Shown here piece after piece: positions 84 through 38,546 of a stretch of DNA of 47,473 nt. The position numbers were made by a program, and so were the translations under genes. The DNA is taken from the IMG/VR virus record IMGVR_UViG_3300031134_000639; one strand, 5' to 3'. Below the pieces are notes generated by a model that made no database searches, was not told the DNA's origin, and saw only the letters and a list, made by a program, of their open reading frames with translations. The stretch is from a virus (Duplodnaviria > Heunggongvirae > Uroviricota > Caudoviricetes). Numbering within the stretch: the first letter of the stretch is position 1; each line of letters starts with the position of its first letter.

Positions 84-980
84 ATGTGTAGGACCAAAGA
101 ACTTGGCGGTAGACGCTGTCCTCAACACACTGACCCTGTGAAGCACGCTGCGTATAACGCTCGCCGCCGTGAGTTGTATGCTGCTAAGAAAAACCAGAAG
201 TCGTCTACTCAACCGCTTGAATCTCTTCTCCCTGCGATACACAAAACGCGTGTGTATGGTGTTACTGAAAACTCAAGGTACACTCAGGAGGCTGAAGAAT
301 ACTATGAGAAGATGAAAAAAGAGACTCTGACCGCTTTGAACTCAGATGACTTCTATGTACAAATTATGCTGGATGAACATGATGAACCTGACGAGCTAAT
401 GTCCCTCAACGGTTACAGCACGTCAGGGTATCAAACAATTCGTTCTTACCTTTCACATCCTGATTCCTTTGAGCCTTCTGCCTCTGCAAAGCTAGATAAA
501 ACCATAAAAGGCATTGACTCAGCCATTGAACGTGCGCCTAAAGTTGAACCTCGTCTACTGTACAGAGGAATTAAGATCCCTGCGTTTGTTGAAGATGAAA
601 ACGTTTCGTCATGGGTTGAAGAAAAGTTCCCCGTAGGAGAAGTTATTGCTCAGGATAACTATGTTTCCACAAGCGTTAACCCGTATATGGCCTCATATTT
701 TGGTGAAACCAACTACAATGCTGAAGCCCAGCGTTCCATTCTCATGGAAATTGTTTCTTCCAACGGAGCGCCTTTGGGGGAGGATATATCAGCAAACGCT
801 CACGAACGTGAAATCCTTCTGTCAAGGAAATCCAGATTCAAGATCGTTGCTGTCCACGAGAATGCTGAAGTGCGCATAAATGAAAACATCCTAGGGGCAG
901 GCAAAGGATTTGAATCTGTCAAACCGTTTACTCTCATCCAAGTTGTTGACATAACAGAAAATCAGTACTCTGATTCTTGA
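84..980 (+). CDS. ART1: tagged mono-ADP-ribosyltransferase (VIP2/C2/C3-like)
   Basis: Tag MCRTKELGGRRCPQH; LYRG, YVSTS, HEREILL; SD GGAGG upstream. Confidence 0.9.
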   Translation: MCRTKELGGRRCPQHTDPVKHAAYNARRRELYAAKKNQKSSTQPLESLLPAIHKTRVYGVTENSRYTQEAEEYYEKMKKETLTALNSDDFYVQIMLDEHDEPDELMSLNGYSTSGYQTIRSYLSHPDSFEPSASAKLDKTIKGIDSAIERAPKVEPRLLYRGIKIPAFVEDENVSSWVEEKFPVGEVIAQDNYVSTSVNPYMASYFGETNYNAEAQRSILMEIVSSNGAPLGEDISANAHEREILLSRKSRFKIVAVHENAEVRINENILGAGKGFESVKPFTLIQVVDITENQYSDS

Positions 981-1002
981 CGAGTAGAATAACATCCAAA
1001 CT

Positions 1003-1014
1003 CCGATAGTAATA
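1003..1014 (+). promoter_or_regulatory. CCGATAGTAATA motif, putative phage-specific promoter
   Basis: Exact motif in the gap before ART2; recurs before ART3, ART8, ART14 and ART21. Confidence 0.7.
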
Positions 1015-1045
1015 GCTGTATACCGCAGTCTTAGGAGTCCATGCA

Positions 1046-1945
1046 ATGTGTCGTAGCAAAGAGTTGGGTGGGCGTCGTTGCCCTCAACATACCGACCCTA
1101 CAAAACGTTCTGCGTATAACGCCCGTAGGCGTGAACTGTACGCTTTACGAAAAGCGATTCTAAAGGTTTCACCAGCTGATGCAAGAGAACAACTTCTTTT
1201 GTCTCCTGACGAACCACGCTTGTACACCAACGAAGTTCATGCCGCTGCGTTCATAAAAGAAGCACATGAGTACTATGAGCTAATGATGGAGCAAACTAAG
1301 ACTAAGCTGGGTTCAAAGGATCTTCCTAGCTTGGGCGAAGACTTTGAGTACACAGATGAACCAGATGAGCTACTTGCGTTACATAAATACAGTTCTGATG
1401 GCTACAGGACAATCCGAGAGTATCTTAACGGCAACCTAGCTGCCACTGCCCCGTGGTTGGATGAGAGTAAACTGGAAGCAGAAGTGCAGGGTCTTGACTC
1501 TGCGCTTGAACGTGCACCCGAAGTGGAACCACGTTTACTGTATCGTGGCATTAGGATAACAAGTGACATTCCCAAAGATGAGGTGTCAGGTTGGCTTGCT
1601 GAGAACTTCCCTGTTGGTGGGGTAGTCAGCCAAGCTAACTATGTTTCCACTAGTGTGCACCCTCAGATTGCTGCTAACTTCAGTGATGGTGTGTGGTCAG
1701 ATGACGGCAAGAAGTCTATTGTCATGGAGATTGTCTCCTCAAATGGTGCACCACTAGGGCATGAGATATCTGCTAACCCTGGTGAGTCAGAGGTTCTGCT
1801 TCCTAGGAACTCAAGGTTCAAAGTAGTTGCCGTCCACGAGAACAGCCTTTTCCATGTGAATGACCCGAAGGCGAGTTATGATAACGACTTGTACAGCAAT
1901 GTAACTCTCATCCAAGTAGTTGACGTTACAAACGAAGCTGAATAG
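1046..1945 (+). CDS. ART2: tagged mono-ADP-ribosyltransferase
   Basis: Tag; LYRG, YVSTS, GESEVLL; looks closest to ART1 (DEPDEL, ERAPxVEPRLLYRGI, MEIVSSNGAPLG). Confidence 0.9.
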   Translation: MCRSKELGGRRCPQHTDPTKRSAYNARRRELYALRKAILKVSPADAREQLLLSPDEPRLYTNEVHAAAFIKEAHEYYELMMEQTKTKLGSKDLPSLGEDFEYTDEPDELLALHKYSSDGYRTIREYLNGNLAATAPWLDESKLEAEVQGLDSALERAPEVEPRLLYRGIRITSDIPKDEVSGWLAENFPVGGVVSQANYVSTSVHPQIAANFSDGVWSDDGKKSIVMEIVSSNGAPLGHEISANPGESEVLLPRNSRFKVVAVHENSLFHVNDPKASYDNDLYSNVTLIQVVDVTNEAE

Positions 1946-1955
1946 TATACGTAGT

Positions 1956-1983
1956 TGTCCCCAGAAGAAAACCGATAGTAATA
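1956..1983 (+). promoter_or_regulatory. TGTCCC...CCGATAGTAATA putative promoter of the ART3-ART5 unit
   Basis: TGTCCC 1956-1961, CCGATA 1972-1977. Confidence 0.7.
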
Positions 1984-2014
1984 TCTGGTACCCATTCTTC
2001 ATCGGAGTTTTCTT

Positions 2015-2848
2015 ATGTGTCGCAGTATAGAACTTGGCGGACGACGTTGTCCTTCACACAGTGACCCGTCCGCCACAGCCGCATACAATGCCGTCCGTCG
2101 TCAACGATATGCTGAAGCGAAGAAAACTGGTTCTCCCGTTCTATCTGCTGACTACGATTTCACTCCTCTAGACCAGATGAAGCAACTAGGGGTAACTGAC
2201 CCTAAATTCGTTGAGTTCGTTGACCAAGCTAAAGAGTTCATAGATAAAGTCTACTCTAAAAATTCCAAAGCTAAAACACCTGAAGCAAAAGCTGTCTACG
2301 CTTACACAAACTTGAACTACATTGACATTAGACACCGTATCTACGGAGGTGAGCTTATACATGAGCAGAATGCCTCCAAAGTAGATGCCATGATAGGTAA
2401 CATTGATACTGCTCTTTTGAAAGCTACCCCGCCTGACGAACCGCGTGAACTCTACCGTGGTGTAAGCCTACCTGACCATGTGGCACCTGAAGATGTTAAC
2501 TCATATTTGGCTGAAAATTTCCCTACCGGTGGGGTAATCAGCCAGAAGAACTTCATGTCAACTAGCTTGTCTCCTTCTTTGGCTTCCACCTTTATGGAAA
2601 AAAACCAGAAGCGCTCCAATGGGGTTCTTATTCAGATACTAAGCAAGAAAGGTGCGCCTTTAGGAGGAAAGCTCTCCTGCTTAGGCAACGGAGAAATGGA
2701 AGTGCTGATGCCCCGTGAAGCTAAATTCAAGGTAGCCGAGGTGGTCACAGATATCAAACCAAACGCTGATCCTCATTCTACCGGTAAGCTAGCTCAGATT
2801 ACGCACATTATTCGCTTAGTTGATGTTACAGATGAGGACGAAAGCTGA
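2015..2848 (+). CDS. ART3: tagged mono-ADP-ribosyltransferase
   Basis: Tag MCRSIELGGRRCPSH; LYRG, FMSTS, GEMEVLM. Confidence 0.9.
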   Translation: MCRSIELGGRRCPSHSDPSATAAYNAVRRQRYAEAKKTGSPVLSADYDFTPLDQMKQLGVTDPKFVEFVDQAKEFIDKVYSKNSKAKTPEAKAVYAYTNLNYIDIRHRIYGGELIHEQNASKVDAMIGNIDTALLKATPPDEPRELYRGVSLPDHVAPEDVNSYLAENFPTGGVISQKNFMSTSLSPSLASTFMEKNQKRSNGVLIQILSKKGAPLGGKLSCLGNGEMEVLMPREAKFKVAEVVTDIKPNADPHSTGKLAQITHIIRLVDVTDEDES

Positions 2849-3714
2849 TGTGCCGTACTAAAGAATTGGGTGGAAGACGTTGCCCACAACACACTGACCC
2901 TGTGAAACACGCAGCATATAACGCTCGTCGTCGTGAACTGTACGCTGCCAAAAAGGTTAAGCCTGTTGAAGAGTTCGCATACACGTTTCCTCCTCTTGAT
3001 GTGATTCGCAGGGAGGCCTCTGCTGAGGAGTGGCAGGCATATTGCGAAGACCGCAACAACTTCTCTAACATTATCAACCCTGGCTGGGACGCTGAAGACT
3101 CTAAATGGTCTGACAAAAGATGGGATAGCGCTAAGTGGAAGCCAGAGAAGGCCAAGCTTGATGCAGTTCTATTCTACACAGACGATGGGTTCCCAGAAGT
3201 TCGTAGTTACCTTGAAGGGCTAAACGACCCTGTAGCATTCCACAGCGATGAATATTATGAGAAAGTAGTGAGGAACCTTGACCTTGTCGTCTCTAAAGCA
3301 AAACCGCCTGAGCAGCCACGACGTTTGTACCGTGGTCTTAGCATGCCTAAAGAGCTTGAAGGTGAGCAGGTTGACCAATGGATTGATGAAAGATTCCCTG
3401 TTGATGGCATCATCTCCCAGAAGAACTACATGTCTACGTCTTTGTCTCCAGAGTCAGCTGTTGACTTCTCAAACGTAGACTCTGGAGACTACAGAGAAGG
3501 TAAAGCTGTTGTCTTTGAGATAATGTCTAAGCAGGGTGCTCCCATTGGTGATGGCGTGTCATATCATCAGAACTCTGAACGCGAAGTCCTGATGCCTCGC
3601 AACGCACGATTTAAAGTTGTTGGTGTGCATAAGAAAGTTGTCTTCAATAGCACAGCTTTCATTGCTAAAAGAAATTACGAACACACAGTCATTCAGCTAG
3701 TGGATGCAAGTTAG
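2848..3714 (+). CDS. ART4: tagged mono-ADP-ribosyltransferase
   Basis: Tag; LYRG, YMSTS, SEREVLM; TGATG overlap with ART3. Confidence 0.9.
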   Translation: MCRTKELGGRRCPQHTDPVKHAAYNARRRELYAAKKVKPVEEFAYTFPPLDVIRREASAEEWQAYCEDRNNFSNIINPGWDAEDSKWSDKRWDSAKWKPEKAKLDAVLFYTDDGFPEVRSYLEGLNDPVAFHSDEYYEKVVRNLDLVVSKAKPPEQPRRLYRGLSMPKELEGEQVDQWIDERFPVDGIISQKNYMSTSLSPESAVDFSNVDSGDYREGKAVVFEIMSKQGAPIGDGVSYHQNSEREVLMPRNARFKVVGVHKKVVFNSTAFIAKRNYEHTVIQLVDAS

Positions 3715-3724
3715 GGAGTAGAAA

Positions 3725-4594
3725 ATGTGTCGCACCAAAGAACTTGGCGGGCGTCGTTGCCCTCAGCATACGGATCCTGTAAAACATGCAGCTTACAATG
3801 CTCGTCGCCGTGAACTTTACGCTGAGAAAAAGAAAGTGATGCTGCCTCCTCTAGAAGAGGCTACCACAGCAGAATACGTGTTTCCTCCTCTAGAAGAAGT
3901 ACGCGCTGAACCGTCTAGTTACGATTTGGAATTCTACCGCCAGGATAGGGCTGATTTCTCTAACTCAATCAACCCTGGCTGGGATGCTGATGACTCTACT
4001 TGGGTCCACCATAGGGTTCGTGGACCATGGAAGCCGGAGACAGACAAAAGAGACTCTGTGTTGTACTACACAGATGAGGGCTACAGGGAGATAAGGGACT
4101 ATCTGAACGGTAAAACTGTCACGAAGCCTGATGAGGTGAACGCTATTATGTCTAACCTTGACTCAGCACTTGAGCAAGCTAAGCCACCTGTGGAGCCTCG
4201 TAGGCTTTATCGTGGACTTACTCTTCCTCATGACTTTGAACCTAATCAAGTTCAAGACTGGCTTGGAGAGAACTTCCCCGTAGGCGGTGTCATCAGTCAA
4301 AAGAATTATATGTCAACAACATTGTCCCCAAATGCAGCTGTAGAATTCTCTAAGGCTTATAACAATGACTACAACAATGGCAAGGCTGTCATTTTTGAGA
4401 TCATGTCCAAACAGGGTGCTCCGGTCGGTGAGGGTTTGTCTTATCATGATGATCGCGAACTTGAAGTCCTCATGAAGAGAAACGCCCGGTTTAAAGTTGT
4501 TGCCGTGCACTCGGTAGTCAGTTTTCACAGTAAAAGCTATATTTCAACTAAGAACCTTGACTACACTGTTATCCAGTTGGTTGATGCTGACTAG
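3725..4594 (+). CDS. ART5: tagged mono-ADP-ribosyltransferase
   Basis: Tag; LYRG, YMSTT, RELEVLM; shares FSNxINPGWDAxDSxW with ART4. Confidence 0.9.
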   Translation: MCRTKELGGRRCPQHTDPVKHAAYNARRRELYAEKKKVMLPPLEEATTAEYVFPPLEEVRAEPSSYDLEFYRQDRADFSNSINPGWDADDSTWVHHRVRGPWKPETDKRDSVLYYTDEGYREIRDYLNGKTVTKPDEVNAIMSNLDSALEQAKPPVEPRRLYRGLTLPHDFEPNQVQDWLGENFPVGGVISQKNYMSTTLSPNAAVEFSKAYNNDYNNGKAVIFEIMSKQGAPVGEGLSYHDDRELEVLMKRNARFKVVAVHSVVSFHSKSYISTKNLDYTVIQLVDAD

Positions 4595-4666
4595 GTGAGA
4601 GGCCATATGACCCTCCAGCAGCCTCTGTGCCGGTCGCTGACAAGCTGAAAGAGGGTTCTCGCCCAC

Positions 4667-4678
4667 CCGTAAGTAATA
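4667..4678 (+). promoter_or_regulatory. Variant motif CCGTAAGTAATA upstream of ART6
   Basis: Differs from CCGATAGTAATA only by AT to TA at two adjacent positions; lies in the 144-bp gap before ART6. Confidence 0.45.
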
Positions 4679-4738
4679 AGATACAAGCCGCTTAGAAAGG
4701 CTCTGGCGGCTTAGAAGAACTCTGGAGTAGAACCTGAT

Positions 4739-5668
4739 ATGTGCAGACCCAAAGAGCTTGGCGGTCGTCGCTGTCCTCAACACACTGACCCTGTGAAGCA
4801 CGCTGCGTACAATGCACGACGTAGGGAGTTATATGCTCAGGGCAAAAGGACACCGGAAGCGGTTATCGCTGCTTTTGACTATAGTTTCCCTGCTATGGAT
4901 GCTTTGCGTGTTAATTTGACTAATGAAGAAGAAACTAGAAGGATTGAAAATGCAGTTGCCTTAGCTAAGAAGATAATCCCAGGTTACGATTATCAGGAAG
5001 CTCAAGATGTGCTTTGGTCAGCCGACCACAGAGATTACCAAAGAGATCTAGAGCCTAACCAGGCTTTACTGTTCTACACAGGCGGTCAGTACCGCCTTGT
5101 TCGTAAAGTTATTTTGAATCCTACAAATAAGCTTGATGGTAAAAAGATAATGGTAGATGAAGACTTCCGGTGGATGCAGAGGACATTGACAACAATGGAC
5201 TCCGCAATAGCTGCCGCTGAGGAGCCAGAAGAACCTCGTTTAGTGTATCGCGGAATGAGATTAGATCCCAATGCATCTGATGAGGAGATAGATGCAATGG
5301 TAGACAAAGGGTTCCCTGTAGGCGGCGTGATAAGCCAGGAGAATTACATGTCTACCACCCAGAAGCCTTCTGTTGCTTACCTTCACTTTGGTGACGGGTT
5401 TACTAACAAAAGTGGCGCAGATTCTAAACGTTCTGTTGTGATGGAAATAATGACACGTAAAGGCGCACCGCTAACGTACGGTACTTCCATGTTTCAGGAC
5501 ACGGAGAAAGAAATTCTTATGCCTCGCAATATGAAGCTGAAAATAGTTTCCGTAGACAAAGATGTTGACGTTCAAGTTGAAGGCAGGTATGAGGAAACAA
5601 TAACGGTGAAACGCACAGTTATCCGATTAATTGATGTAGAAGATGACTTAGGAGTAAGCAATGTGTAG
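4739..5668 (+). CDS. ART6: tagged mono-ADP-ribosyltransferase
   Basis: Tag; VYRG, YMSTT, TEKEILM. Confidence 0.9.
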   Translation: MCRPKELGGRRCPQHTDPVKHAAYNARRRELYAQGKRTPEAVIAAFDYSFPAMDALRVNLTNEEETRRIENAVALAKKIIPGYDYQEAQDVLWSADHRDYQRDLEPNQALLFYTGGQYRLVRKVILNPTNKLDGKKIMVDEDFRWMQRTLTTMDSAIAAAEEPEEPRLVYRGMRLDPNASDEEIDAMVDKGFPVGGVISQENYMSTTQKPSVAYLHFGDGFTNKSGADSKRSVVMEIMTRKGAPLTYGTSMFQDTEKEILMPRNMKLKIVSVDKDVDVQVEGRYEETITVKRTVIRLIDVEDDLGVSNV

Positions 5669-6527
5669 AACCGGTGGAAGACGTTGCCCGTCACATAGCG
5701 ACCCTAAAATGGTTACAGAGCGTAACGCCCGACGCCGCGCTGCATATGCTGCTAAAGTTAGCAATGTCATACCTGCTCCGGTATATAATTTCCCTTCAAT
5801 AACGGAGAGTCTGCCGTACATGGATGGTGAAGGAAACAGCCCCGAAGAGAAACAATTCTTCGCTGACCAGAAAGCCTTCTTCGACCTTGTTGACCCTGAC
5901 GCTATCACTGTGCCAGCAGAGAACGAAGACCGAGATCTCACAGAGGAAGAAGCTGAGGAAGCTCGTCTTCGCCATGAAGAGTTCTATACTCTTCGTGACT
6001 ACACTGAGGACAGCTTCAATGATGTGAGAGAGTACCTTATTGACGGTGATATCTTCAATAACGTGGACCATGAAAAGACGGTGGCAAGTCTTGACCGTGC
6101 TATTGCAAAAGCCACCCCTCCTAAGGAGGACCGTGTCCTGTATCGTGGACTGGCTATCCCCGCTGATGTTATAGACGATGAAAGAGTTGACAGTTGGTTG
6201 GAGGAGCGCTTCCCTGTCGGTGGAGTAATCAGCCAGAAAAACTACATGTCAACTAGCGTCAGTCCCTCTGTAGCGAATAATTTCAGTGAGTGGAATAGCT
6301 CAACAGATGACGATGGCATAATCATGCAGATTCTATCCAAAAAAGGTGCACCACTTGGTTTAGGTACATCATACCGTGGCTTAGAAGAAATGGAAGTCCT
6401 CATCCCCCGTGATGCAAAGTTCAAGGTAGTTGAAGTTATCAGGAACACACCGTATGACATTGTTAAGGGTACCAGGACTGTCAGTGAAGAGCGTAAGACA
6501 ATAATCAGGGTTGTTGACGCTAGCTGA
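5661..6527 (+). CDS. ART7: mono-ADP-ribosyltransferase with short tag
   Basis: Short tag MCRTGGRRCPSH; LYRG, YMSTS, EEMEVLI; 8-nt overlap with ART6. Confidence 0.9.
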   Translation: MCRTGGRRCPSHSDPKMVTERNARRRAAYAAKVSNVIPAPVYNFPSITESLPYMDGEGNSPEEKQFFADQKAFFDLVDPDAITVPAENEDRDLTEEEAEEARLRHEEFYTLRDYTEDSFNDVREYLIDGDIFNNVDHEKTVASLDRAIAKATPPKEDRVLYRGLAIPADVIDDERVDSWLEERFPVGGVISQKNYMSTSVSPSVANNFSEWNSSTDDDGIIMQILSKKGAPLGLGTSYRGLEEMEVLIPRDAKFKVVEVIRNTPYDIVKGTRTVSEERKTIIRVVDAS

Positions 6528-6978
6528 AGCGTGCCAAAATGCTGTCACCATGGCCGTTAAAGTGTTCAGTCATGATGAAGCTGTTGTCCTTGAGGAAGCT
6601 AATCAGCTTCCTGTGCTTAGGACTGACTTCAATGTATGTGGTAGCAGCGCCTAAATCCCGAAGATCCCGAGTTACTGTCTCCAACAGTCTCGTGCCATAA
6701 CCTCTACCTGCATAATGCTCTGAAACTTTGAATGTAGAAATCTTTGCTACAGGCATGTTGAAACCATAGCTGTCATTCTCCTGCGGCTTAGTGATAACAA
6801 CAGCAGCATACTCTTGCTGTGAGTTCAATATGACATATGCTTTTCGGGTGGAATCAATGCTGACCTTGTTAGTCCATGCTTCAAAATTATCGTACGCATA
6901 TTGTAGTGAACCGAAGATGGGGTCATCCCAGTTGACTTCGCTTGTAGATAGCGTCATTATCTTAGGCACAGTCAGCAT
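6520..6978 (-). CDS. GNAT-family acetyltransferase (start may be the ATG at 6957)
   Basis: Motif A ISTFKVSEHYAGRGYGTRLLE, then IEVSPKHRKLISFLKDNSF. Confidence 0.75.
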   Translation of the reverse strand: MLTVPKIMTLSTSEVNWDDPIFGSLQYAYDNFEAWTNKVSIDSTRKAYVILNSQQEYAAVVITKPQENDSYGFNMPVAKISTFKVSEHYAGRGYGTRLLETVTRDLRDLGAATTYIEVSPKHRKLISFLKDNSFIMTEHFNGHGDSILARFS

Positions 6979-7210: not shown

Positions 7211-7239
7211 CATAGTACGTTCAACAAGTTAGGGTAATG

Positions 7240-8118
7240 ATGTGTAGAGCCGGTGGAAGACGCTGCCCGTCTAGTAGCGACCCTGCACTTGCAGCTGACC
7301 GGAACAAGCGCAGGCGAGACCTTTACGCTTCCAAGAAAAGCATGTTTGGCGTAACACAGTTCCCATCTTTGAATGAGAACCACCCATTTGTTGACATTAA
7401 TGGCGACTCACCTGAAGCCTTAGCTTACAAGCAGGCAACAAGAGAATACGTTCAGGCTATAAGAGACCATTATCATGGTAACCCGGTGAAGATAGAGGAG
7501 ATAGAATCCGCTGTCGGTTACTATACTGTTGACGGGTACGAAGAAATTCGTGATTACCTGAACAACTACCAAGTAGCTTCTTCAGGCAAAGAAAAACGTG
7601 TTGTTTACCTTCCTGAAGAGCTAGAGTTTCTGTCTCAACAGATTGAGATTTTAGATGATGTTCTTAAACTCTCCCCTAAGCCATCCGAATCACGTCTACT
7701 GTACCGTGGGCTGGTTGTGCCTCGCAATGTTAGCGAAGCTGACGTAGACAACTGGGCTGAAGATAAGTTCCCGGTCGGAGGGGTTATCAGCCAAAAGAAC
7801 TACATGTCCACCACAGCAAATGCTTCCACTGCATTGTATGAGTTCGCAAGTGATTCCTCCGACCGTTCTGTTATTTTTGAGATCCTTTCCAAAGAAGGTG
7901 CACCTTTAGGCGATGGGTTATCTTATCAAGGAGACTCTGAGATGGAAGTGCTCATGCCGAGGGAAACAAAATTCAAGGTTGTTTCAGTAGACAAAAATGT
8001 AGCTTATGAGAGTGAACAAAAAGCTCATTCTTACGGGCTTGGTGGCCCTCCAGTGTATGAGAAAGAAACAAGGATAGTCACAGTTATTCGTTTGATAGAT
8101 GCAGGAGATGCTAGCTGA
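7240..8118 (+). CDS. ART8: mono-ADP-ribosyltransferase with short tag
   Basis: MCRAGGRRCPSS; LYRG, YMSTT, SEMEVLM; the second of two tandem ATGs matches the paralog starts. Confidence 0.9.
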   Translation: MCRAGGRRCPSSSDPALAADRNKRRRDLYASKKSMFGVTQFPSLNENHPFVDINGDSPEALAYKQATREYVQAIRDHYHGNPVKIEEIESAVGYYTVDGYEEIRDYLNNYQVASSGKEKRVVYLPEELEFLSQQIEILDDVLKLSPKPSESRLLYRGLVVPRNVSEADVDNWAEDKFPVGGVISQKNYMSTTANASTALYEFASDSSDRSVIFEILSKEGAPLGDGLSYQGDSEMEVLMPRETKFKVVSVDKNVAYESEQKAHSYGLGGPPVYEKETRIVTVIRLIDAGDAS

Positions 8119-26687: not shown

Positions 26688-26689
26688 AG

Positions 26690-30183: not shown

Positions 30184-31112
30184 TGTGTCGCACTAAAGAG
30201 CTTGGCGGGAGACGCTGTCCTCAACATACCGACCCTATAAAACATGCTGCATATAACGCTCGTCGTCGTGAGTTGTATGCAGCCAGGAAATTTCAGAGGA
30301 GTGCTTCCACCAACTTGTATGAGTTTCCACCTGTAGACGCTTTCCGAAGCTTCACTAAAGGAGATCAGAAACGTCATGAGAAGGAAAGCGAAAAGTTCGC
30401 AGCCACAATCGTTGAAGGGTATAATCTAGCGGAAGCAAAAGAGGGAAGATGGAATAGCATCAACTCCAAAAACGGCTGTGAGACTTCTAGAGCTTTTATA
30501 CAGTATACAAGTTCAAGTTACCGTGCTTTGCGTGACTTTAACAACCCTAGGCTAAAAGATGATAAGTATGCTGGCGTTTGGAACAACTCCAACAAAGATA
30601 ACTCTGAGAAGCTTCAGAAGATAACTGATTTGTTAGATGCTGCTCTAGCTAAAGCTGAGAAACCTGACGCACCCCGAAGGTTATGGAGAGGAATGCAAAT
30701 AAATCTGAATGTGCCGAAAGAAGAGATTGCAAGTTATCTAGAAGAACGTTTCCCTGTTGGCGGTGTTATCAGCCAAGGAAACTTTATGTCTACCAGCATG
30801 GATGCCCAGCAGGCAATCGCTTTTTCACAGGGTTGGGATAAAGATTATAACAACACAGTTGAGCATAGTATTTTGCTTGAGATTCTTTCACGTGAGGGCG
30901 CTCCTTTAGGTTATGCAACATCAGTTTTCAACGTTGAAGAAGCAGAGACACTTGTGCCAAGAAATGCTAGGTTTAAGGTTGTTTCTATTGACCACAACCA
31001 GGAGGTAGAATACGAAACTAGTTCGCTTTCAGGGCAAAAAGGTAAAAGCAAAGCCTCACGAACAGTGATTCGTCTAATTGACGCAGTAGATGAAGCTGAT
31101 GTGCAGAAGTAA
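30183..31112 (+). CDS. ART16: tagged mono-ADP-ribosyltransferase
   Basis: Tag; LWRG, FMSTS, EEAETLV. Confidence 0.9.
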   Translation: MCRTKELGGRRCPQHTDPIKHAAYNARRRELYAARKFQRSASTNLYEFPPVDAFRSFTKGDQKRHEKESEKFAATIVEGYNLAEAKEGRWNSINSKNGCETSRAFIQYTSSSYRALRDFNNPRLKDDKYAGVWNNSNKDNSEKLQKITDLLDAALAKAEKPDAPRRLWRGMQINLNVPKEEIASYLEERFPVGGVISQGNFMSTSMDAQQAIAFSQGWDKDYNNTVEHSILLEILSREGAPLGYATSVFNVEEAETLVPRNARFKVVSIDHNQEVEYETSSLSGQKGKSKASRTVIRLIDAVDEADVQK

Positions 31113-32043
31113 AGAACTGGGTGGGCGCAGGTGTCCAGCGCATACTGACCCGCAGAAAATTGCTGCATATAATACTGTCCGCCGTCAACGATATGCAGCT
31201 CAAAAACAAATAAACGGTGAAGATCGTCCAGACGAAACTTTTGTTCTAAAAGCTGATGAAGAGTATGGTTTCAGACCCTTCAAAGAAAATCGTGCTACGT
31301 TCCTTTTGGATAGCGTAGAAGGTCAACAGTGGCTTAAGGATGCAGATGTGTTCGCTGAAGCTGTTGATGCTACAGAAGAAGGTGCGAATCTGAAGCCCTG
31401 GCAGTATAGGGTTGACATGCAGACTTCTTTGAGAGCTTACACACAATATGAATACAGCAACATCAAAAGTTACCTGCATGGTCAGAACATGAACGGTAAC
31501 TTGGAGACGATTGAGCCGGTTCCTATGGAAGATGACCAGGTTAAATACACGGTAGAAAAAATGCATCTCATTGACGAAGCCTTAGAGCATGCTGCTGCGC
31601 CAGAATCTGAGAGAGCCTTATACAGAGGAATGCGCGTTCCGAACTGGGTCGACTCTGACCAAATCAAACCTTGGATTCATGAGAACTTCCCTGTTGGTGG
31701 GGTGGTTTCACAGAAAAGCTTTATGTCAACAAGCATGAATCCAACTTTAACAGTTGGTATGTTCAGCGTATCTAAGACGCCCAATGGTAGAGACTCAAAA
31801 GATTCTGACCGTAGTGTTGTCATTGAGATTATGTCTAAGCAGGGTGCTCCTCTGGGTGAACTGTTATCTGAACATGGGAACGACGAAACTGAAATTCTGA
31901 TGCCAAGAGATGCTAAGTTTAGGGTTGTCTCAGTTCATGAGGACGTTCGGTATCTGAGCATGAAACAAAGCCATTATGAGATGAGCGGTATCAAAAGGCC
32001 AAGGCACACTCGCACTGTGGTTCGCCTAATTGATGCAAGTTAA
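31099..32043 (+). CDS. ART17: tagged mono-ADP-ribosyltransferase
   Basis: Start moved to ATG 31099; LYRG, FMSTS, DETEILM. Confidence 0.9.
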   Translation: MCRSKELGGRRCPAHTDPQKIAAYNTVRRQRYAAQKQINGEDRPDETFVLKADEEYGFRPFKENRATFLLDSVEGQQWLKDADVFAEAVDATEEGANLKPWQYRVDMQTSLRAYTQYEYSNIKSYLHGQNMNGNLETIEPVPMEDDQVKYTVEKMHLIDEALEHAAAPESERALYRGMRVPNWVDSDQIKPWIHENFPVGGVVSQKSFMSTSMNPTLTVGMFSVSKTPNGRDSKDSDRSVVIEIMSKQGAPLGELLSEHGNDETEILMPRDAKFRVVSVHEDVRYLSMKQSHYEMSGIKRPRHTRTVVRLIDAS

Positions 32044-32049
32044 CATAGT

Positions 32050-32074
32050 TGTCCCCTTGAAGACAAAACCGATA
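32050..32074 (+). promoter_or_regulatory. TGTCCC...CCGATA putative promoter of the ART18-ART20 unit
   Basis: TGTCCC 32050-32055, CCGATA 32069-32074. Confidence 0.65.
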
Positions 32075-32111
32075 GATATGAGTAATACGTTGTTTGACAA
32101 GAAGGAACCTC

Positions 32112-33101
32112 ATGTGCAGAACTAAAGAGTTAGGTGGGCGTCGTTGCCCTCAACATACTGACCCTGTGAAGCATGCTGCATACAACGCTCGTCGTCGTGA
32201 GTTGTATACTGCTAAGAAAACTCAGAGTGAAGAGGCTAAGGCTGAGGCTGAGGAACAGCCTCTTCACTCTGGCGCATATAAGGTTTCTATAGACAAACTA
32301 GACCAGCCGCGATGGTTCCTAACTAAAGAACATCATGAAGCTGAAGTGAAAAACTCTGAAGAGTACCTAAAAATCCTGCGAGAACAACAGTTAATTCGTG
32401 AGCAGCATGACCCAGATGCTACTGGTCTAACAGCAGCCATCTATGATTGGACAGCCTTAGACTCTCCTCAGATTAGAAACTACCTGAACGGTTATGATGT
32501 TGGCATGTTTGGTATGCAGAAAAGGCAGCCGTTTACTTACGATGCAGAGTCAACTCGTTACTATCAGGACAAAGTTGATACGATGGACGAAGCCCTAAGT
32601 CTCGCCCCTGTACCAGCCGAACCTAGAACAGTCTGGCGTGGCATAAGACTCCCGACACTCCAATCATCAGAGCCACTAGCTGAGTGGGCTGAGAAACATT
32701 TCCCTGTCGGTGAAGTGATAAGCCAAAAGTCTTATATGTCAACAACTTTAGACCCGATGATGGCAAACACACGCTTTACAACAAGCGCAACTCAGGCTCC
32801 TGGAATAATCATGGAGATAAAGACCAAAAAAGGTGCTGTCCTTTTGAATAACGACCTGACTGAATGGTCAGATGAGTCAGAACTGTTACTCCCCCGCGAT
32901 GCTAAATTCAAAATTGTGAAAGTAACACATGACACTAAGTTCTATACTGTAAGTAAACACTCTAAGCACAGTACAGAGAACATGCCTAGCGCAGAAGAGC
33001 TTGAAAAGAACCCAGAGAACATGGACTATCTTCTTAAGAAGAGAATTATTCTTGTCCAACTTGTTGATGCTGACGCGGAAGTAGAGGAAACTGATGTGTA
33101 G
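32112..33101 (+). CDS. ART18: tagged mono-ADP-ribosyltransferase
   Basis: Start moved to ATG 32112; VWRG, YMSTT, DESELLL. Confidence 0.9.
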   Translation: MCRTKELGGRRCPQHTDPVKHAAYNARRRELYTAKKTQSEEAKAEAEEQPLHSGAYKVSIDKLDQPRWFLTKEHHEAEVKNSEEYLKILREQQLIREQHDPDATGLTAAIYDWTALDSPQIRNYLNGYDVGMFGMQKRQPFTYDAESTRYYQDKVDTMDEALSLAPVPAEPRTVWRGIRLPTLQSSEPLAEWAEKHFPVGEVISQKSYMSTTLDPMMANTRFTTSATQAPGIIMEIKTKKGAVLLNNDLTEWSDESELLLPRDAKFKIVKVTHDTKFYTVSKHSKHSTENMPSAEELEKNPENMDYLLKKRIILVQLVDADAEVEETDV

Positions 33102-34077
33102 AACTAAAGAGTTAGGCGGGCGTCGTTGCCCTCAACACACTAACCCTGTAAAACATGCTGCATATAACGCTCGCCGCCGCGAGCTTTATGCTGCTAAGAA
33201 AACTCAGACTAAAGAGGCTAAGGCTGAAGATCAGCCTCTTCACTCTGGCGCGTACAAGGTCTCTATAGACAAACTAGACCAGCCGCGATGGTTCCTAACT
33301 AAAGAACAGTATCATATTGAAAATAAAAACTCTGAAGAATACGAAAAGCTGTTGAATGAGCAACAACTAATCCGTAAGCAGGATAACCCACTTAGTCCTG
33401 ATTTAGTATCAGCTGTATACGACTGGACTGCTCTAAGCTCTCCTGAAATTAGAGACTACCTTAACGGCTACGATGTTGGCGTGTTCGGTATGCAAAAAAA
33501 GCAGCCAATTGTCTACGGTGAACAGCGTGCTCGTTATATGCAGGAGAAAGTAGACGCTCTTGATGCAGCGCTTAAAGTTGCTCCTGAGCCAGATGAGCCT
33601 AGAACAGTTTGGCGAGGTATAAGGCTTCCTGTACTTCAATCACAAAGGCCCTTGTCCGAGTGGGCTGATGAGCACTTCCCTGTTGGCGAAGTTATAAGTC
33701 AGAAGTCTTTTATGTCAACGACTTTAGACCCTGCGCTGGCGAATACACGTTTCACATCAAGTGATTCTGAGGCTCCTGGAATAATCATGGAGATAAAGAC
33801 CAAAAAAGGAGCAGTTATCATGACCTCTGCACTCAGTGAGTGGGCAGATGAGTCAGAGGTGCTGATTCCCCGTGACGCTAGATTCAAAGTTGCTAAAGTG
33901 ACACACAACACTAGGTTCTACACCCGAAACTTGGAGTGCGAATACAGCAGAGAGGACATGCCAAGCATGGAGGAACTTGAACAGGACTCAAAAAACACAA
34001 AATACTTGCTTAAGAAGAACATAATTCTTGTTCAACTTGTTGATGCTGACGCGGAAGTAGAGGAAACTGATGTGTAG
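33094..34077 (+). CDS. ART19: tagged mono-ADP-ribosyltransferase, recent duplicate of ART18
   Basis: VWRG, FMSTT, DESEVLI; colinear and highly similar to ART18 throughout. Confidence 0.9.
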   Translation: MCRTKELGGRRCPQHTNPVKHAAYNARRRELYAAKKTQTKEAKAEDQPLHSGAYKVSIDKLDQPRWFLTKEQYHIENKNSEEYEKLLNEQQLIRKQDNPLSPDLVSAVYDWTALSSPEIRDYLNGYDVGVFGMQKKQPIVYGEQRARYMQEKVDALDAALKVAPEPDEPRTVWRGIRLPVLQSQRPLSEWADEHFPVGEVISQKSFMSTTLDPALANTRFTSSDSEAPGIIMEIKTKKGAVIMTSALSEWADESEVLIPRDARFKVAKVTHNTRFYTRNLECEYSREDMPSMEELEQDSKNTKYLLKKNIILVQLVDADAEVEETDV

Positions 34078-35005
34078 AACCGGTGGAAGACGCTGTCCGT
34101 CTAGCAATGACCCTACGTTAGTTGCCGCTCGTAACGCGCGCCGCAGAGAAGCATATGCCTCCCGTAAAGTAGTGTCAGCGCCTGCGCAAGTGCCATTGAA
34201 GAGCGCAGAGGAATATGGGTTCCAGCCTGTCATAGAGAAGCGTCAGGAGAGTGACATAGCTGAGATGAACAAAGAAAGCAAAAGAGAGCTAGCCGAACTG
34301 TCAGCTGATGAATTAGGTGCAGTCAAGATCTTTACTGGTCCAGCGCATAAATGGATAAATAATGCTTTGTTCGGCAGGAACAACAGTATACATGATGGTG
34401 ACCAGCTTCCTGAAGGACACTCAGGAAGAAATGAAGTTACTTTTGACACGCTAGACAACGTAGGCAACCCTTCTCTCCAGAATCTATTTAAAGTTGTAGA
34501 TAAGCTTGACAGCGCATTAGCTTCCCATAGTTCTAAAGAGCGTATCGTATACCGAGGTAAGAGTTCCAGAAGTTACCGCATACAGAAAGAAGGTGTTTCT
34601 GCATATGTTGATAAAAACTACAGTCTAGGTCAGGAAGTTGTATTTGATGGGTACCAGTCGACATCTTCGTCACCCATGTCAGCTTTGGATTTTGCAGACT
34701 ACAGTGATGGGATAATATTTGAGATGAAAACTGTTTCCGGTTTGAATATCATCTCAAATTCTGATATGCAAGAAGAACAGGAAATTCTTCTTCCCCGTCA
34801 GACACGATGGAAAGTTGTGGGTGTAGAGAAAAACATTCGCTACCGTGCACAGTTTGACTCAGATAATATGACTGTTGTTCAGATGGTTGAAATTGATGAA
34901 ACTGGTAAGGAACTTAAAGAAAGGCAGCTGCCTCAACCTTTGACCCATTCTCAGATACAGAAAACAATTTCAACTGAGGTGGTAGACCCGTGGGTGTCCC
35001 ACTAG
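34070..35005 (+). CDS. ART20: short-tag ADP-ribosyltransferase with a divergent catalytic domain
   Basis: MCRTGGRRCPSS; INNAL helix, VYRG, YQSTS, EEQEILL; lacks the F-P-[VTI]-[GD]-x-[VI]-[VI]-[SA]-[QH] segment and the GA[PSV]-type motif of the others. Confidence 0.88.
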   Translation: MCRTGGRRCPSSNDPTLVAARNARRREAYASRKVVSAPAQVPLKSAEEYGFQPVIEKRQESDIAEMNKESKRELAELSADELGAVKIFTGPAHKWINNALFGRNNSIHDGDQLPEGHSGRNEVTFDTLDNVGNPSLQNLFKVVDKLDSALASHSSKERIVYRGKSSRSYRIQKEGVSAYVDKNYSLGQEVVFDGYQSTSSSPMSALDFADYSDGIIFEMKTVSGLNIISNSDMQEEQEILLPRQTRWKVVGVEKNIRYRAQFDSDNMTVVQMVEIDETGKELKERQLPQPLTHSQIQKTISTEVVDPWVSH

Positions 35006-35022
35006 TCAAACCCGATAGTAAT
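34995..35022 (+). promoter_or_regulatory. TGTCCC...CCGATAGTAAT putative promoter of the ART21-ART24 unit
   Basis: TGTCCC 34995-35000 (inside the ART20 3' end), CCGATA 35012-35017. Confidence 0.65.
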
Positions 35023-35051
35023 GAACAGTAACTTTCATCTGGAGATTAAGT

Positions 35052-35978
35052 ATGTGTAGGACCAAAGAACTAGGCGGTAGACGCTGCCCACAGCACACCG
35101 ACCCCGTTAAACATGCTGCATATAACGCTCGCAGGCGTGAATTGTATGCTCTAAACAAAGCACAGAAAACGGAATCACCCGAGTCCAAGTTCATTCCAGT
35201 CAACCAAGTCCGCACGTATTATCAGGCCTACCAGGATGACAAAGTTTCTCCTCTAGATGAGACAACCCAAAAATTTGTTGATGAAGCTAAAGCTTTCACG
35301 CTTTCTATCAACCCGGACTTCAAAGAAAGTCACTGGATGGACCAGGACTACTACGACTTTGATGAAGCAGACGGAGAAATGAGTCCTGCAAGGTCGCTGA
35401 TCTACTATACAGAGACTGGATACAATCATATGAGGAATATCCTCAACGCTGGTACACCAGCTGACCTGTCTGGTAGGATGCAACGCGAGAAAGCATGGGA
35501 AGACTGGAACAAAACTACCATCGGCGTTATTGACAAAACTATTGCCCGTGCATCAGAACCAGAAGAACCACGCTTGCTGTTCCGTGGAATGCGTGTCCCA
35601 CTTTCTATTCACGCAACCTCAGTAGACAATTGGCTTGACGAAAACTTCCCTGTCGGTGGCATTGTCAGTCAGAAGTCTTACATGTCAACCACCATGAACG
35701 CTGCCACTGCATTGCGAAATTTCGGTAAAGACTACCATGATGAAAACCGTGCTATCATCATGGAAATTGTTTCCAAGAAAGGTGCTCCGCTTGGCCCTGG
35801 CACCTCAGCTTACGGTTTCCAGGAGATGGAAGTACTAATGGCAAGGGAATCCAAATTCAAGATTGTCAACGTAATCAAGGATGTTCAGTACGGTGCTGTT
35901 GACGGTGATAACGTAAAAGTAGAAGGAAAAGTTACTATCATACGCTTAGTTGACATGGCAGATGAGGACAACAGCTGA
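35052..35978 (+). CDS. ART21: tagged mono-ADP-ribosyltransferase
   Basis: Tag; LFRG, YMSTT, QEMEVLM. Confidence 0.9.
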   Translation: MCRTKELGGRRCPQHTDPVKHAAYNARRRELYALNKAQKTESPESKFIPVNQVRTYYQAYQDDKVSPLDETTQKFVDEAKAFTLSINPDFKESHWMDQDYYDFDEADGEMSPARSLIYYTETGYNHMRNILNAGTPADLSGRMQREKAWEDWNKTTIGVIDKTIARASEPEEPRLLFRGMRVPLSIHATSVDNWLDENFPVGGIVSQKSYMSTTMNAATALRNFGKDYHDENRAIIMEIVSKKGAPLGPGTSAYGFQEMEVLMARESKFKIVNVIKDVQYGAVDGDNVKVEGKVTIIRLVDMADEDNS

Positions 35979-36820
35979 TGTGTAGACCTAAAGAATTGGG
36001 TGGCCGTCGCTGCCCACAGCACACTGACCCTATGAAACATGCTGCGTATAACGCTCGTCGCCGCGAGTTGTACCATATAAGTAAAAATGACGTTTCTACT
36101 GCTTTTCCTCTTCTCGACTCAGTTCGGTTGAAAATGAAGGACAACAAAAAAGCTTTACAGAGGTGGACTGATGAACAGATGGAGTTCACCAAGAAAATTA
36201 ACCCAAGCTACACTCCAGAAAGCTGGGAGAGCCATCGGGATGATACTAGCAATTGGCAAGAAACACAGTCTGAAGCTGACGCAATACTTCACTACTCTGA
36301 TTATGGATACAAGCGTATTTCACGCTATTTTAACGACCAAAACTCAGGAATTGAACCTGAAGAAATAGAACCAGTCCTAAGTCAACTTGATTCTGCTTTA
36401 TCTAAAGCAGACAGGCCAGAGGAGCCTCGTTTGCTATATCGTGGGGTGCATCTGGCAGAGCTAAATAACGCGGATTGGGTTGACCGAAATTTCCCTGTCG
36501 GGAAGGTAATCAGTCAGAAGAATTATATGTCAACAAGCTTTGACCCAGAAATTGGTTTAACCTTTGCAGGAAATGGTTCTCTTGTACTAGAAATACTCAG
36601 TAAGCAAGGTGCGCCTATTGGCGAGGGGCTTTCCTACTATGGCTCCGATGAACATGAAGTCCTTATGCCTCGTGAAACAAAGTTCAAGGTGGTGGCAGTC
36701 CACCATGGAGTTTCCTTTAAAGTAAAAGATCAATCTGTTCACCAGCAAGATCAGACCCCTCACGTCACAGTCGTACAACTTGTTGACGCAGACAACGAAG
36801 AAACAGGAGAAGTAAACTGA
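35978..36820 (+). CDS. ART22: tagged mono-ADP-ribosyltransferase
   Basis: Tag; LYRG, YMSTS, DEHEVLM. Confidence 0.9.
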   Translation: MCRPKELGGRRCPQHTDPMKHAAYNARRRELYHISKNDVSTAFPLLDSVRLKMKDNKKALQRWTDEQMEFTKKINPSYTPESWESHRDDTSNWQETQSEADAILHYSDYGYKRISRYFNDQNSGIEPEEIEPVLSQLDSALSKADRPEEPRLLYRGVHLAELNNADWVDRNFPVGKVISQKNYMSTSFDPEIGLTFAGNGSLVLEILSKQGAPIGEGLSYYGSDEHEVLMPRETKFKVVAVHHGVSFKVKDQSVHQQDQTPHVTVVQLVDADNEETGEVN

Positions 36821-37671
36821 TGTGTAGGCCTAAAGAATTGGGTGGCCGTCGCTGCCCTCAACACACTGACCCCGTGAAGCATGCTGCATATAACGCGCGC
36901 CGCCGCGAACTGTACGCTGAGAAGAATACGGCTCCTGCCACTAAAGTTGAGTTTGCTCCAGCAGGTGAACTACGGGAGAACTTCCTGACTAACGAGCCTG
37001 CCCTAAAACAGTGGTTTAAGGACTCTGAAAGCTTCAGAGACAAAATCGTACCAAACTACTCTGAAAAAGAATGGCTTGAATATAGGGATGATGAAGACCT
37101 GTGGAAACCTAGCGAATCTAAACAGGATGCAGTCATGTACTACACAGACTACGGCTTCAAAGAAATCCGCCAGTATTTGAACTATTCTACACCTGAGCGT
37201 AAAGCAAACCTGGAACCTATCATGGGTTTAATTGACTCTGTACTAGCTGAAGCTGAACCACCTAAAGACCCACGAATCCTCTACCGTGGCTTAAGTCTTT
37301 CGGTGCCAGACAAAAAACAGTGGGCTGAGAAACATTTTCCTGTTGGCGGTATAGTCAGTCAGAAAAACTACATGTCTACAACATTAAATCCGATTGTCAG
37401 TATGGACTTTGCGTCAGCATTCACATGGACTGAAGGTGAAGACTCTGTAATCTTTGAAATCCTCAGTAAGCAGGGTGCACCAATCGGACCAGGTTTAGGT
37501 TACCAGAGGTTCACTGAATATGAAGTGCTGATGCCCAGGGAAACAAAGTTTAAGGTAGCAGCTATTCACCATGACGTACCGTTTGGTGCTAAAGGGCAGG
37601 ACACTGCATACAAAAATGTGCGAGCTACCGTGATTCAACTTATTGATGTTGACGAAGAAGGAGACAACTAA
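36820..37671 (+). CDS. ART23: tagged mono-ADP-ribosyltransferase
   Basis: Tag; LYRG, YMSTT, TEYEVLM. Confidence 0.9.
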   Translation: MCRPKELGGRRCPQHTDPVKHAAYNARRRELYAEKNTAPATKVEFAPAGELRENFLTNEPALKQWFKDSESFRDKIVPNYSEKEWLEYRDDEDLWKPSESKQDAVMYYTDYGFKEIRQYLNYSTPERKANLEPIMGLIDSVLAEAEPPKDPRILYRGLSLSVPDKKQWAEKHFPVGGIVSQKNYMSTTLNPIVSMDFASAFTWTEGEDSVIFEILSKQGAPIGPGLGYQRFTEYEVLMPRETKFKVAAIHHDVPFGAKGQDTAYKNVRATVIQLIDVDEEGDN

Positions 37672-38546
37672 TGTGTAGGCCTAAAGAATTGGGTGGCCGT
37701 CGCTGCCCTCAACACACTGACCCCGTGAAGCACGCTGCATATAACGCTCGCAGGCGTGAGGTTTACGCTCAGAAGAAAACGGTTTCAACTCCGGTAGACG
37801 ATGCTGTGACGCGAGCATTCCCTCCGCTTTCTGAACCACGCTCTGTCCCATCAATAGTAAACAATGAGTTAGATAATTTTTATGATGAGTCAAACGACTT
37901 TCGTGACCTCGTATGGCCTGAATATGACGAAGACGAATGGGAGTACCTGGCTAGCTCCGAAAACTGGGTTCCCGAAAATTCACCAGCTGAAGCAATTCAA
38001 CATTATACTAGCCATGGCTACAAAGAATACCGAACTTATAGTCTGGGTAAAATGAAACCTAGCAATATTATGAATGTGACCGCTCAGGCTGTTGCTCACA
38101 TGGACAATGCAATCCAAAGTTGTCCACCGCCAGCTGAGCCTAGAAGAGTCTACAGAGGACTAAGAATCCCCACTGAAATGATGGACGGCGGAAGTCCAGA
38201 AGAGTACATGGAAGAACATTTTCCTATTGGCGGGGTTGTAAGCCAAGAGAGTTTTATGTCAACAAGCTTACACCCAAATATTGCCTATGAGTTCACACGC
38301 TATGGCGCAATGAAAGACGTTCCTGTGCTGTTTGAGATTGTAAGTAAACAGGGTGCTCCTATCGGGGATGGTCTCACCACATCATCTCATGAGTATGAAG
38401 TTATCATGCCGAGGAAAGCTAAATTCAAGGTAGTTGGAGTGCATCATAACGCTAATTTCTCCGCTGTCCAAAAAACTTTCAGAGAACCAGAAACAAACAC
38501 TTACAAGAACATAACAGTCATTCAACTCATGGATGTGAGCGAATAA
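37671..38546 (+). CDS. ART24: tagged mono-ADP-ribosyltransferase
   Basis: Tag; VYRG, FMSTS, HEYEVIM. Confidence 0.9.
   Translation: MCRPKELGGRRCPQHTDPVKHAAYNARRREVYAQKKTVSTPVDDAVTRAFPPLSEPRSVPSIVNNELDNFYDESNDFRDLVWPEYDEDEWEYLASSENWVPENSPAEAIQHYTSHGYKEYRTYSLGKMKPSNIMNVTAQAVAHMDNAIQSCPPPAEPRRVYRGLRIPTEMMDGGSPEEYMEEHFPIGGVVSQESFMSTSLHPNIAYEFTRYGAMKDVPVLFEIVSKQGAPIGDGLTTSSHEYEVIMPRKAKFKVVGVHHNANFSAVQKTFREPETNTYKNITVIQLMDVSE

Follow-up and report, generated by a model that had tools for sequence, protein, structure and literature searches.

We analyzed a 47,473-nt stretch of DNA from a Caudoviricetes virus (IMG/VR record IMGVR_UViG_3300031134_000639; its full length is called the window hereafter) and found 24 full-length genes predicted to encode catalytically competent mono-ADP-ribosyltransferases (ARTs) of the R-S-ExE clade (C2/C3/Vip2/Alt-like, PF03496). 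The proteins are 277-329 amino acids (aa) long, counted from a Met-Cys-Arg start, and their genes lie on the + strand in two arrays, array A with 13 copies (84-12609) and array B with 11 (28427-38546), separated by a 15.8-kb block of unrelated genes (table 1). The copies are ancient duplicates, each retained by purifying selection; all of them are headed by the same 36-residue Met-Cys/Arg-rich module (N-module), and no recognisable ART partner lies within the window. Taken as a whole, we propose that the arrays probably encode arginine-directed host-takeover effectors of an uncultivated phage-like element of ~885 kb, which would resemble T4 Alt, ModA, and ModB at a far larger scale.

All 24 copies matched PF03496 (ADPrib_exo_Tox, ADP-ribosyltransferase exoenzyme) at E <= 0.001 (best E 5.3e-19) and above its curated cut-off of 23.4 bits, with scores of 34-69 bits among seven copies; PF01129 (NAD:arginine ART) was also matched by 7 of the 24. 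In a MAFFT alignment of the 24 sequences, numbered as in copy 4, the invariant columns included R158, R162-G163, S196-T197, E244, and E246, and position 198 was Ser or Thr in all copies, completing a Ser-Thr-[ST] triplet with S196-T197. R162, the Ser-Thr-[ST] triplet, and E246 follow the order R, STS, ExE that the PF03496 family requires, and in the hidden Markov model (HMM) alignment to Vis they fell on YRG, STS, and ExE. An earlier note, made from the sequence alone, had claimed that every copy keeps [LV][YWF]RG, [YF]xST[ST], and ExE and had listed the middle residues of ExE; the aligned columns bear this out in 24/24 copies, with exactly the same 11 middle-residue variants. The copies also proved free of frameshifts and internal stops, as the same note had stated, and when the 24 genes were masked, a tblastn search of the window with every copy recovered no decayed ART fragment (best E only 0.09), so ART pseudogenes elsewhere in the window were rejected.

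A profile of the 24 copies detected Vis (4XZJ; the best match, E 4e-13), SpvB (2GWL), VahC, Vip2, Certhrax, CDTa, and iota Ia (E 4e-13 to 1e-7). The AlphaFold2 (AF2) model of copy 4 (predicted local distance difference test, pLDDT, 87; predicted template modelling score 0.79) has the split beta-sandwich core and alpha-helical N-lobe of the ART fold, and Foldseek aligned it with C3bot2, Vip2, Vis, C3cer, and iota (E 2.5e-11 to 1e-9, probability 1.00), at an identity to these structural toxin relatives of 11-21% over the common fold. The matches in a viral structure library were phage ARTs, ARTs fused to head-morphogenesis or portal proteins, and Alt-like 'RNA polymerase ADP-ribosylases', and those among PHROG profiles were phrog_595 and phrog_16619 (head proteins with a C-terminal ART) and phrog_802 (Alt-like). 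In ARTs, ExE goes with arginine specificity and QxE with other acceptors (PMC3102197). The reading of ExE as a mark of arginine specificity agrees with this and with Vis, SpvB, VahC, Vip2, CDTa, and iota as nearest solved relatives; on the strength of the motif and these relatives, the 24 copies most likely carry out arginine-directed ADP-ribosylation.

The age of the copies was addressed by Nei-Gojobori counts of synonymous and non-synonymous differences on the codon alignment, each summarised as the median of all pairwise comparisons. For synonymous differences this proportion (pS) was 0.75-0.77 in every region of the genes, which amounts to saturation; the non-synonymous value (pN) rose from 0.23 in the N-module (codons 1-36) through 0.39 in the core to 0.59 in the variable part. 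Because synonymous sites are saturated and the core and N-module are conserved, we concluded that the copies are ancient and individually kept by purifying selection. In addition, the chance that a 290-codon frame stays open under neutral drift of such depth is ~1e-6 to 1e-11 per copy, an improbability that implies purifying selection on each copy for most of its history. Copies 18 and 19 are the only pair with unsaturated synonymous sites, and on them the comparison of core and variable region proposed in the earlier note was run: the ratio of non-synonymous to synonymous substitution rates (dN/dS) was 0.195 for the whole gene, 0.10 for the catalytic core (thus not near 1), 0.06 for the N-module, and 0.34 for the variable region. 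Purifying selection on every copy, as claimed from the intact motifs, is supported.

The paralogs are only ~37-47% identical to each other, whereas every copy has a 95-100% identical counterpart among database proteins; related contigs 511 kb and 163 kb long carry many of these counterparts. The tree placed array A copies among those of array B, on long branches and with only four local sister groups; thus, the arrays are old and reshuffled rather than products of recent tandem bursts. Copy 20 clustered with relatives of 385-411 aa from other metagenomes. Gene conversion was considered as the source of the near-identical N-termini and rejected, since the first 114 nt vary freely at synonymous sites (e.g., CGT, AGA, and AGG for the same arginines) and the pS of the module, 0.76, is as elsewhere; the near-identity of the N-module at the protein level is thus due to selection.

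Divergence is distributed unevenly along the proteins. Mean pairwise identity was 0.77 in the N-module, 0.72 in the STS strand region, and 0.66 in the ExE strand; it was 0.14-0.31 in the helical N-lobe, 0.21 in the region after STS (the position of the phosphate-nicotinamide, PN, loop), and 0.10 in the hairpin 266-277, and the residues just before ExE (the tip of the ADP-ribosylating turn-turn, ARTT, loop) are highly variable. The counterparts of these variable elements in solved relatives contact the substrate (PMC3102197). Variation in such substrate-facing parts would fit diversified targets, without proving them. The earlier proposal that the copies are non-redundant goes further than these data, which show that each has been retained and that its substrate-facing parts have diverged; distinct targets would be a step beyond.

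The earlier note described the catalytic triad correctly and left unmentioned the N-module, although this is the most conserved part of all 24 proteins. In it, Met-Cys-Arg is followed by a short spacer, then by GGRRC and P..P, and finally by the Arg-rich helix NARRRxxYA. When 1.84 billion representative proteins were searched with a profile of the module, or tag, 198 cluster representatives matched at E <= 0.001, almost all of them from residue 1, and the ART core HMM was matched by 139 of the 163 tagged proteins examined. The cargo other than PF03496 comprised Zeta_toxin (PF06414; P0143), ART-PolyVal (PF18760; P0159), which is a distinct ART clade from injected polyvalent proteins, coiled-coil proteins, and an unnamed domain of ~200 aa with the motifs SKPxxGGLWTSPG and WTDW, found behind the tag in at least eight clusters (P0105, P0111, P0120, P0134, P0141, P0145, P0140, and P0158). 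The AF2 model of the P0105 family (pLDDT 72) had no Foldseek match at E <= 0.001; VIA-align returned MbcT (Z 6.6), ParT (5.7), and diphtheria toxin (5.5), plus RES, NatT, and PARPs, a list almost wholly of ART-superfamily toxins but with Z values that are only middling (5-6.6). Judged from this model, the domain may be a new branch of the ART superfamily. Tagged ARTs also occur in tandem on other metagenome contigs, and a relative of the tag adjoins a DnaG-like primase in Gordonia otitidis. Its place at residue 1 ahead of varied cargos marks the N-module as a portable handle for effector-type, mostly NAD-using enzymes. Two further observations concern tagged proteins. Most copies share a second conserved motif, F-[PA]-P-[LI]-[DS]-x-x-R, at residues 46-58 (DNA 2983-3021 in copy 4), ~10-15 residues past the N-module; it is a candidate docking strand or processing site. 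A 448-aa tagged ART with a long Lys-rich linker is encoded on a 4-kb metagenome contig (L004; 2353-3699, +), near a LigT-type 2H phosphoesterase gene (575-1006, -).

Successive ART copies are spaced by -14 to 144 bp, with the 712-bp gap between copies 7 and 8 as the sole exception. Consecutive genes of a run share bases between stop and start codon (TGATG, TAATG) or overlap by 8 or 14 nt, and acidic C-terminal tails (DEDES, EEEEK, DEDNS) are encoded by a purine-rich GAGGA/GGAG stretch that is the ribosome-binding site of the overlapping next gene (e.g., 2824-2848, 29257-29281, and 35954-35978). Most copies without a coupled successor end 2-4 residues past the last strand, the exceptions with longer tails being copies 1, 2, and 20. 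Six CCGATAGWWAT sites were found on the + strand (1003, 1972, 7199, 28381, 32069, and 35012), each 31-34 nt ahead of the start codon (ATG) of the first ART copy in a translationally coupled run, and only before ART units. At five of the six, GTCCC(C) lies 10-14 nt upstream, which gives a promoter-like motif GTCCC(C)-N10-14-(A)AACCGATAG[TA][AT]AT (e.g., 1957-1982, +) with five full matches compared with none in shuffles. Bare CCGATA occurs at 14801, 25305, and 43109 (+) and at 19826, 22128, and 22977 (-), 8-45 nt upstream of the starts of several unrelated window genes, a distance suggestive of short-leader or leaderless transcripts and of a promoter class specific to this element. CCGATA looks like a general promoter element here, with its extended form at the ART units, which points to co-regulation of the arsenal. 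CCGATAGWWAT was absent from five related loci. Around the arrays, sigma-70-type promoter-like sites were not above chance, and a modest excess of intrinsic terminators led nowhere.

The absence of immunity partners was a central claim of the earlier note, and it holds in part. Among the ~40 window ORFs (open reading frames) scanned, none matched macrodomain, ARH, or NADAR families, and the gaps of -14 to 144 bp leave no room for same-strand partners. The statement that no small ORF lies between the copies fails, since a 152-aa GCN5-related N-acetyltransferase (GNAT) is encoded on the opposite strand between copies 7 and 8; a search for further content in the 144-bp and 712-bp gaps yielded nothing besides this gene. 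We know of no GNAT that serves as an ART immunity protein. GNATs and ARTs are both listed among phage host-takeover enzymes (PMC7824862). On these two grounds, we read the GNAT genes as further effectors rather than antidotes, and the one inside array A may be another host-modifying enzyme. The three ORFs directly after array B had no Pfam or PHROG match and no usable match in the Atlas, whose models of them are poor (pLDDT 0.37-0.38), and they, like the GNAT gene, qualify the claim that the copies lack partners.

Hidden immunity ORFs in other frames were also considered. The arrays contain 65 alternate-frame ORFs of at least 50 aa, at most 114 aa long, and the longest of these are the reverse complement of the conserved N-module. 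They were rejected as shadow frames, because saturated synonymous sites leave no second constraint and so disfavour a second coding layer; cognate inhibitors in cryptic ORFs, which the earlier note had named as contrary evidence, were thus looked for and only such shadow frames were seen. Neither array has an adjacent cognate immunity gene per toxin, as found in Tre1-Tri1 and Bxa-Bsi-BAH, and the tag family does combine a conserved N-terminal part with variable C-terminal domains across genomes, as polymorphic toxins do. Because no immunity gene alternates with the copies, we agree with the earlier conclusion that the window lacks a toxin-antitoxin or classical polymorphic-toxin layout.

Mapping of the window proteins led to a contig of 885,359 bp. 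This contig and related large ones carry between them at least 14 additional ART clusters, none of which reaches 90% identity to a window copy. No relatives were found among cultured phages (megablast of 12600-28400 and tblastn of one ART copy against 50,697 phage records) or in a scan of IMG/VR with the ART alignment, and no look-alike stretches were found in the other genomes scanned. The window also encodes an rIIA-like protein, the best matches of which are from phages of Actinobacteria, YceI and AIM24 homologues, many ORFans, and a class II aminoacyl-tRNA synthetase-like protein (26690-27940, -; tRNA-synt_2b and HGTP_anticodon; phrog_35619, E 2e-85); a tRNA scan found no tRNA genes in it. 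Three proteins carry a type IV pilin N-terminal methylation motif (PF07963; 14814-15362, 15398-15883, and 43099-44295, all +), with N-termini 45-80% identical; in a phage-like genome, such cargo is unusual. A second paralog family, of weak internal similarity (BLASTP E 1e-5 to 3e-19), comprises four Cys-rich ORFs of 200-248 aa (12606-13208, 13212-13871, 15902-16648, and 18021-18722, all -), for which there was no significant Pfam or PHROG match, the ORF at 18021-18722 giving only sub-threshold ones (GcrA, phrog_5840).

Table 1. Predicted ART copies and neighbouring genes in the window (positions in nt; "motif" denotes the promoter-like motif; MCR, Met-Cys-Arg).
Feature	Position	Strand	Length (aa)	ExE	Remarks
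ART copy 1	84..980	+	298	ERE	LYRG, YVSTS
ART copy 2	1046..1945	+	299	ESE	own motif at 1003
ART copy 3	2015..2848	+	277	EME	motif 1957-1982; stop overlaps start of copy 4
ART copy 4	2848..3714	+	288	ERE	reference for residue numbering and AF2 model
ART copy 5	3725..4594	+	289	ELE	60% identity to copy 4
ART copy 6	4739..5668	+	309	EKE	
ART copy 7	5661..6527	+	288	EME	short N-module form MCRTGGRRC
GNAT acetyltransferase gene	6520..6978	-	152		PF00583, E 1.5e-8; in 712-bp gap between copies 7 and 8
ART copy 8	7240..8118	+	292 (from MCR start)	EME	motif 7180-7209
ART copy 9	8118..8996	+	292	EME	
ART copy 10	8996..9928	+	310	EAE	
ART copy 11	9915..10796	+	293 (from MCR start)	EKE	
ART copy 12	10796..11707	+	303	ETE	
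ART copy 13	11707..12609	+	300	ENE	end of array A
Second GNAT-domain gene	13935..14759	+	274		Cys-rich N-terminus; just after array A
ART copy 14	28427..29281	+	284	ESE	short N-module; motif 28363-28391
ART copy 15	29281..30183	+	300	EME	
ART copy 16	30183..31112	+	309	EAE	LWRG
ART copy 17	31099..32043	+	314 (from MCR start)	ETE	
ART copy 18	32112..33101	+	329 (from MCR start)	ESE	VWRG; motif 32051-32079
ART copy 19	33094..34077	+	327	ESE	73% identity to copy 18
ART copy 20	34070..35005	+	311	EQE	VYRG, YQSTS; most divergent copy
ART copy 21	35052..35978	+	308	EME	LFRG; motif 34996-35022
ART copy 22	35978..36820	+	280	EHE	
ART copy 23	36820..37671	+	283	EYE	
ART copy 24	37671..38546	+	291	EYE	end of array B
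Three ORFs directly after array B	38590..40648	+	217, 232, 227		without detectable family or fold

We considered what such an arsenal might do. Each protein combines an invariant 36-residue N-module with ~100 fast-diverging helical residues and a conserved NAD-binding core, the substrate-facing loops of which (PN-loop region, ARTT tip, and beta-hairpin) also vary. The genes would be transcribed in ~eight units from one class of promoter-like sites, with translational coupling within units, and during infection many different host proteins would be ADP-ribosylated, for takeover or for blocking defences. A shared destination might be set by the N-module for the ARTs and, in related elements, for further effector enzymes; the likeliest are the virion, which would allow co-injection, and an intracellular platform of nucleic acid or protein. 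The missing antidotes fit a takeover role, because a host-killing virus would need none beside each gene. Fold, motifs, intactness, age, selection, gene architecture, and tag portability are the directly supported parts of this reading; catalytic activity, specificity for arginine, the host proteins targeted, and what the tag does are inferred. A bolder version, which we put forward only tentatively and would not bet on, is that the tag is a new loading or ejection signal or a common docking handle, by which the largest phage-like genome yet seen would deliver 40 or more tagged enzymes at once, mostly arginine ARTs with different targets, joined in relatives by Zeta-type kinases and other ART-superfamily domains.

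Several points weigh against the takeover reading. ExE has exceptions as a mark of arginine specificity: TccC3 modifies threonine, and T4 ModB can attach NAD-capped RNA as well. The GNAT in array A and the three ORFs that follow array B could be partners of some other kind. The host is probably a member of the Actinobacteria, and only the rIIA matches and the tag relative in Gordonia point to it. Nothing in the window speaks for packaging into the virion: it holds no head, portal, or protease genes near the arrays, and no cleavage site was identified. In the tag itself, just two Cys are invariant and a conserved four-ligand metal site is missing; its residues 1-20 are modelled by AF2 with low confidence (pLDDT 54-66).

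Other explanations differ in how the activity is restrained and in what it is directed at. The ARTs might be toxic to the producing cell, with one ADP-ribosylarginine hydrolase or some other inhibitor, encoded elsewhere in the element, acting in trans to restrain them or undo their work. One eraser would then serve many writers, and the locus would after all belong to a toxin/immunity or reversible-modification system; this recalls Tre1-Tri1 and Bxa-BAH/Bsi, would be compatible with the takeover reading, and is a genuine possibility that we nevertheless think unlikely. The prophage ART Bxa, with an N-terminal domain common to diverse toxins, does have two immunity proteins (PMC11699363), and the three ORFs after array B are unexplained. 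Neither array, however, holds an eraser or a small partner, and one eraser for 40 or more diverged writers would need to act on the product, which would be regulation rather than cognate immunity; T4 Alt, ModA, and ModB, moreover, function without immunity genes. It is distinctly improbable that the acceptors are not arginines at all and are instead nucleic acids, or that NAD-capped RNA is attached to proteins as by T4 ModB, with the Arg-rich helix as an RNA- or DNA-binding element. ModB is itself an R-S-ExE enzyme, the second half of the N-module (NARRRExYAAKK) appears to resemble an arginine-rich nucleic-acid-binding peptide, and the same short motif is repeated in the unrelated proteins P0148 and P0153; however, the DNA-targeting R-S-E members pierisin and Scabin have QxE compared with ExE in 24/24 copies here, and the nearest relatives in both sequence and structure are protein-arginine ARTs.

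The copies might also be largely redundant, serving dosage or representing variants of one activity tuned to allelic forms of a target across host strains, i.e., a host-range arsenal. Identical core chemistry in all copies, a single promoter class that suggests co-expression, and the lack of evidence for positive selection (variable region dN/dS 0.34 in the only informative pair) speak for redundancy. We nevertheless consider it improbable: the copies share only ~37-47% identity with saturated sites, divergence peaks in the PN loop, the ARTT loop, and the helical lobe, and orthologous counterparts in related contigs are 95-100% identical compared with ~40% for paralogs; dosage would favour homogenised copies, yet no gene conversion was seen. 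Secreted exotoxins against eukaryotic cells (e.g., acting on plant or insect actin), carried as cargo virulence genes like phage-borne C2/C3-type toxins, come to mind because the best solved relatives SpvB, VahC, Vip2, CDTa, and iota ADP-ribosylate actin at Arg177. That similarity, however, is just 11-21% identity over the common fold; the proteins have no signal peptide or hydrophobic segment and begin with a basic Cys-containing module instead of a secretion leader, the window has no binding/translocation (B) component, and a set of at least 24 tightly coupled paralogs in a virus suits effectors that act inside the cell, so that exotoxins appear very hard to credit.

If the preferred reading of host-takeover effectors is right, several implications follow. 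Known phages carry one to ~ten ARTs, compared with 24 intact ancient copies in 47 kb here and more elsewhere in the genome, and ADP-ribosylation could thus be scaled into a broad multi-target strategy, as the 24-copy set implies. The copies would form a natural enzyme panel, with one chemistry and diversified substrate-facing surfaces, in which to study target choice by the helical lobe and by the loops (PN and ARTT). The 885-kb contig exceeds the 735 kb quoted for the largest phage genome in a 2026 review (PMC13282480). The occurrence of the tag almost only at the very start of effector-type enzymes in Actinobacteria-linked mobile elements points to an undescribed addressing mechanism; were the tag a delivery signal, this would be a multi-effector injection system made of single-domain proteins instead of one polyvalent protein.

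Among the closest known systems are T4 Alt, ModA, and ModB, which are also phage R-S-ExE enzymes with several paralogs per genome, no immunity gene, and, as predicted here, arginine specificity. The ART domain matches phrog_802 and Alt-like viral models, a likeness of the ART domain only. T4 has 3 copies, in contrast with 24 in the window plus at least 14 further paralog clusters, and the sequence similarity is marginal; T4 Alt is a 682-aa protein, packaged and cleaved by the prohead protease, whereas every copy here carries an unrelated 36-aa Cys/Arg module. The C2/C3-like toxins (Vis, SpvB, VahC, Vip2, Certhrax, CDTa, and iota Ia) have the same PF03496 domain, fold, and R/STS/ExE active site; they differ in being secreted or injected into eukaryotic cells, often with a B component or delivery domains, whereas the proteins described here are encoded in a viral genome, have no secretion signal, and bear a distinct N-terminal tag. 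MuF-fused and polyvalent-protein phage ARTs and the Bxa/Bsi/BAH system of a Bacteroides prophage (PMC11699363) share with our copies a conserved N-terminal part followed by interchangeable toxin-type domains, and the nearest PHROG profiles here are ARTs fused to head proteins. The MuF domain, which has a known capsid role, spans a few hundred residues, whereas the tag has 36 and matches no family. Bxa has two adjacent immunity genes, whereas none was seen beside the ART copies, and in place of one multidomain polyvalent protein there are dozens of single-domain tagged enzymes in one genome. Phage ARTs are often packaged and injected, and the highest reported viral counts are at least 10 in Bacillus phage G and 12 in Bodo saltans virus (PMC9503650). 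Like these two, the element has multiplied, fast-evolving ARTs in a giant viral genome; the count is at least twice as high in 47 kb alone, however, and the copies are organized in two coupled tandem arrays with one promoter-like motif and one N-terminal tag on all of them.

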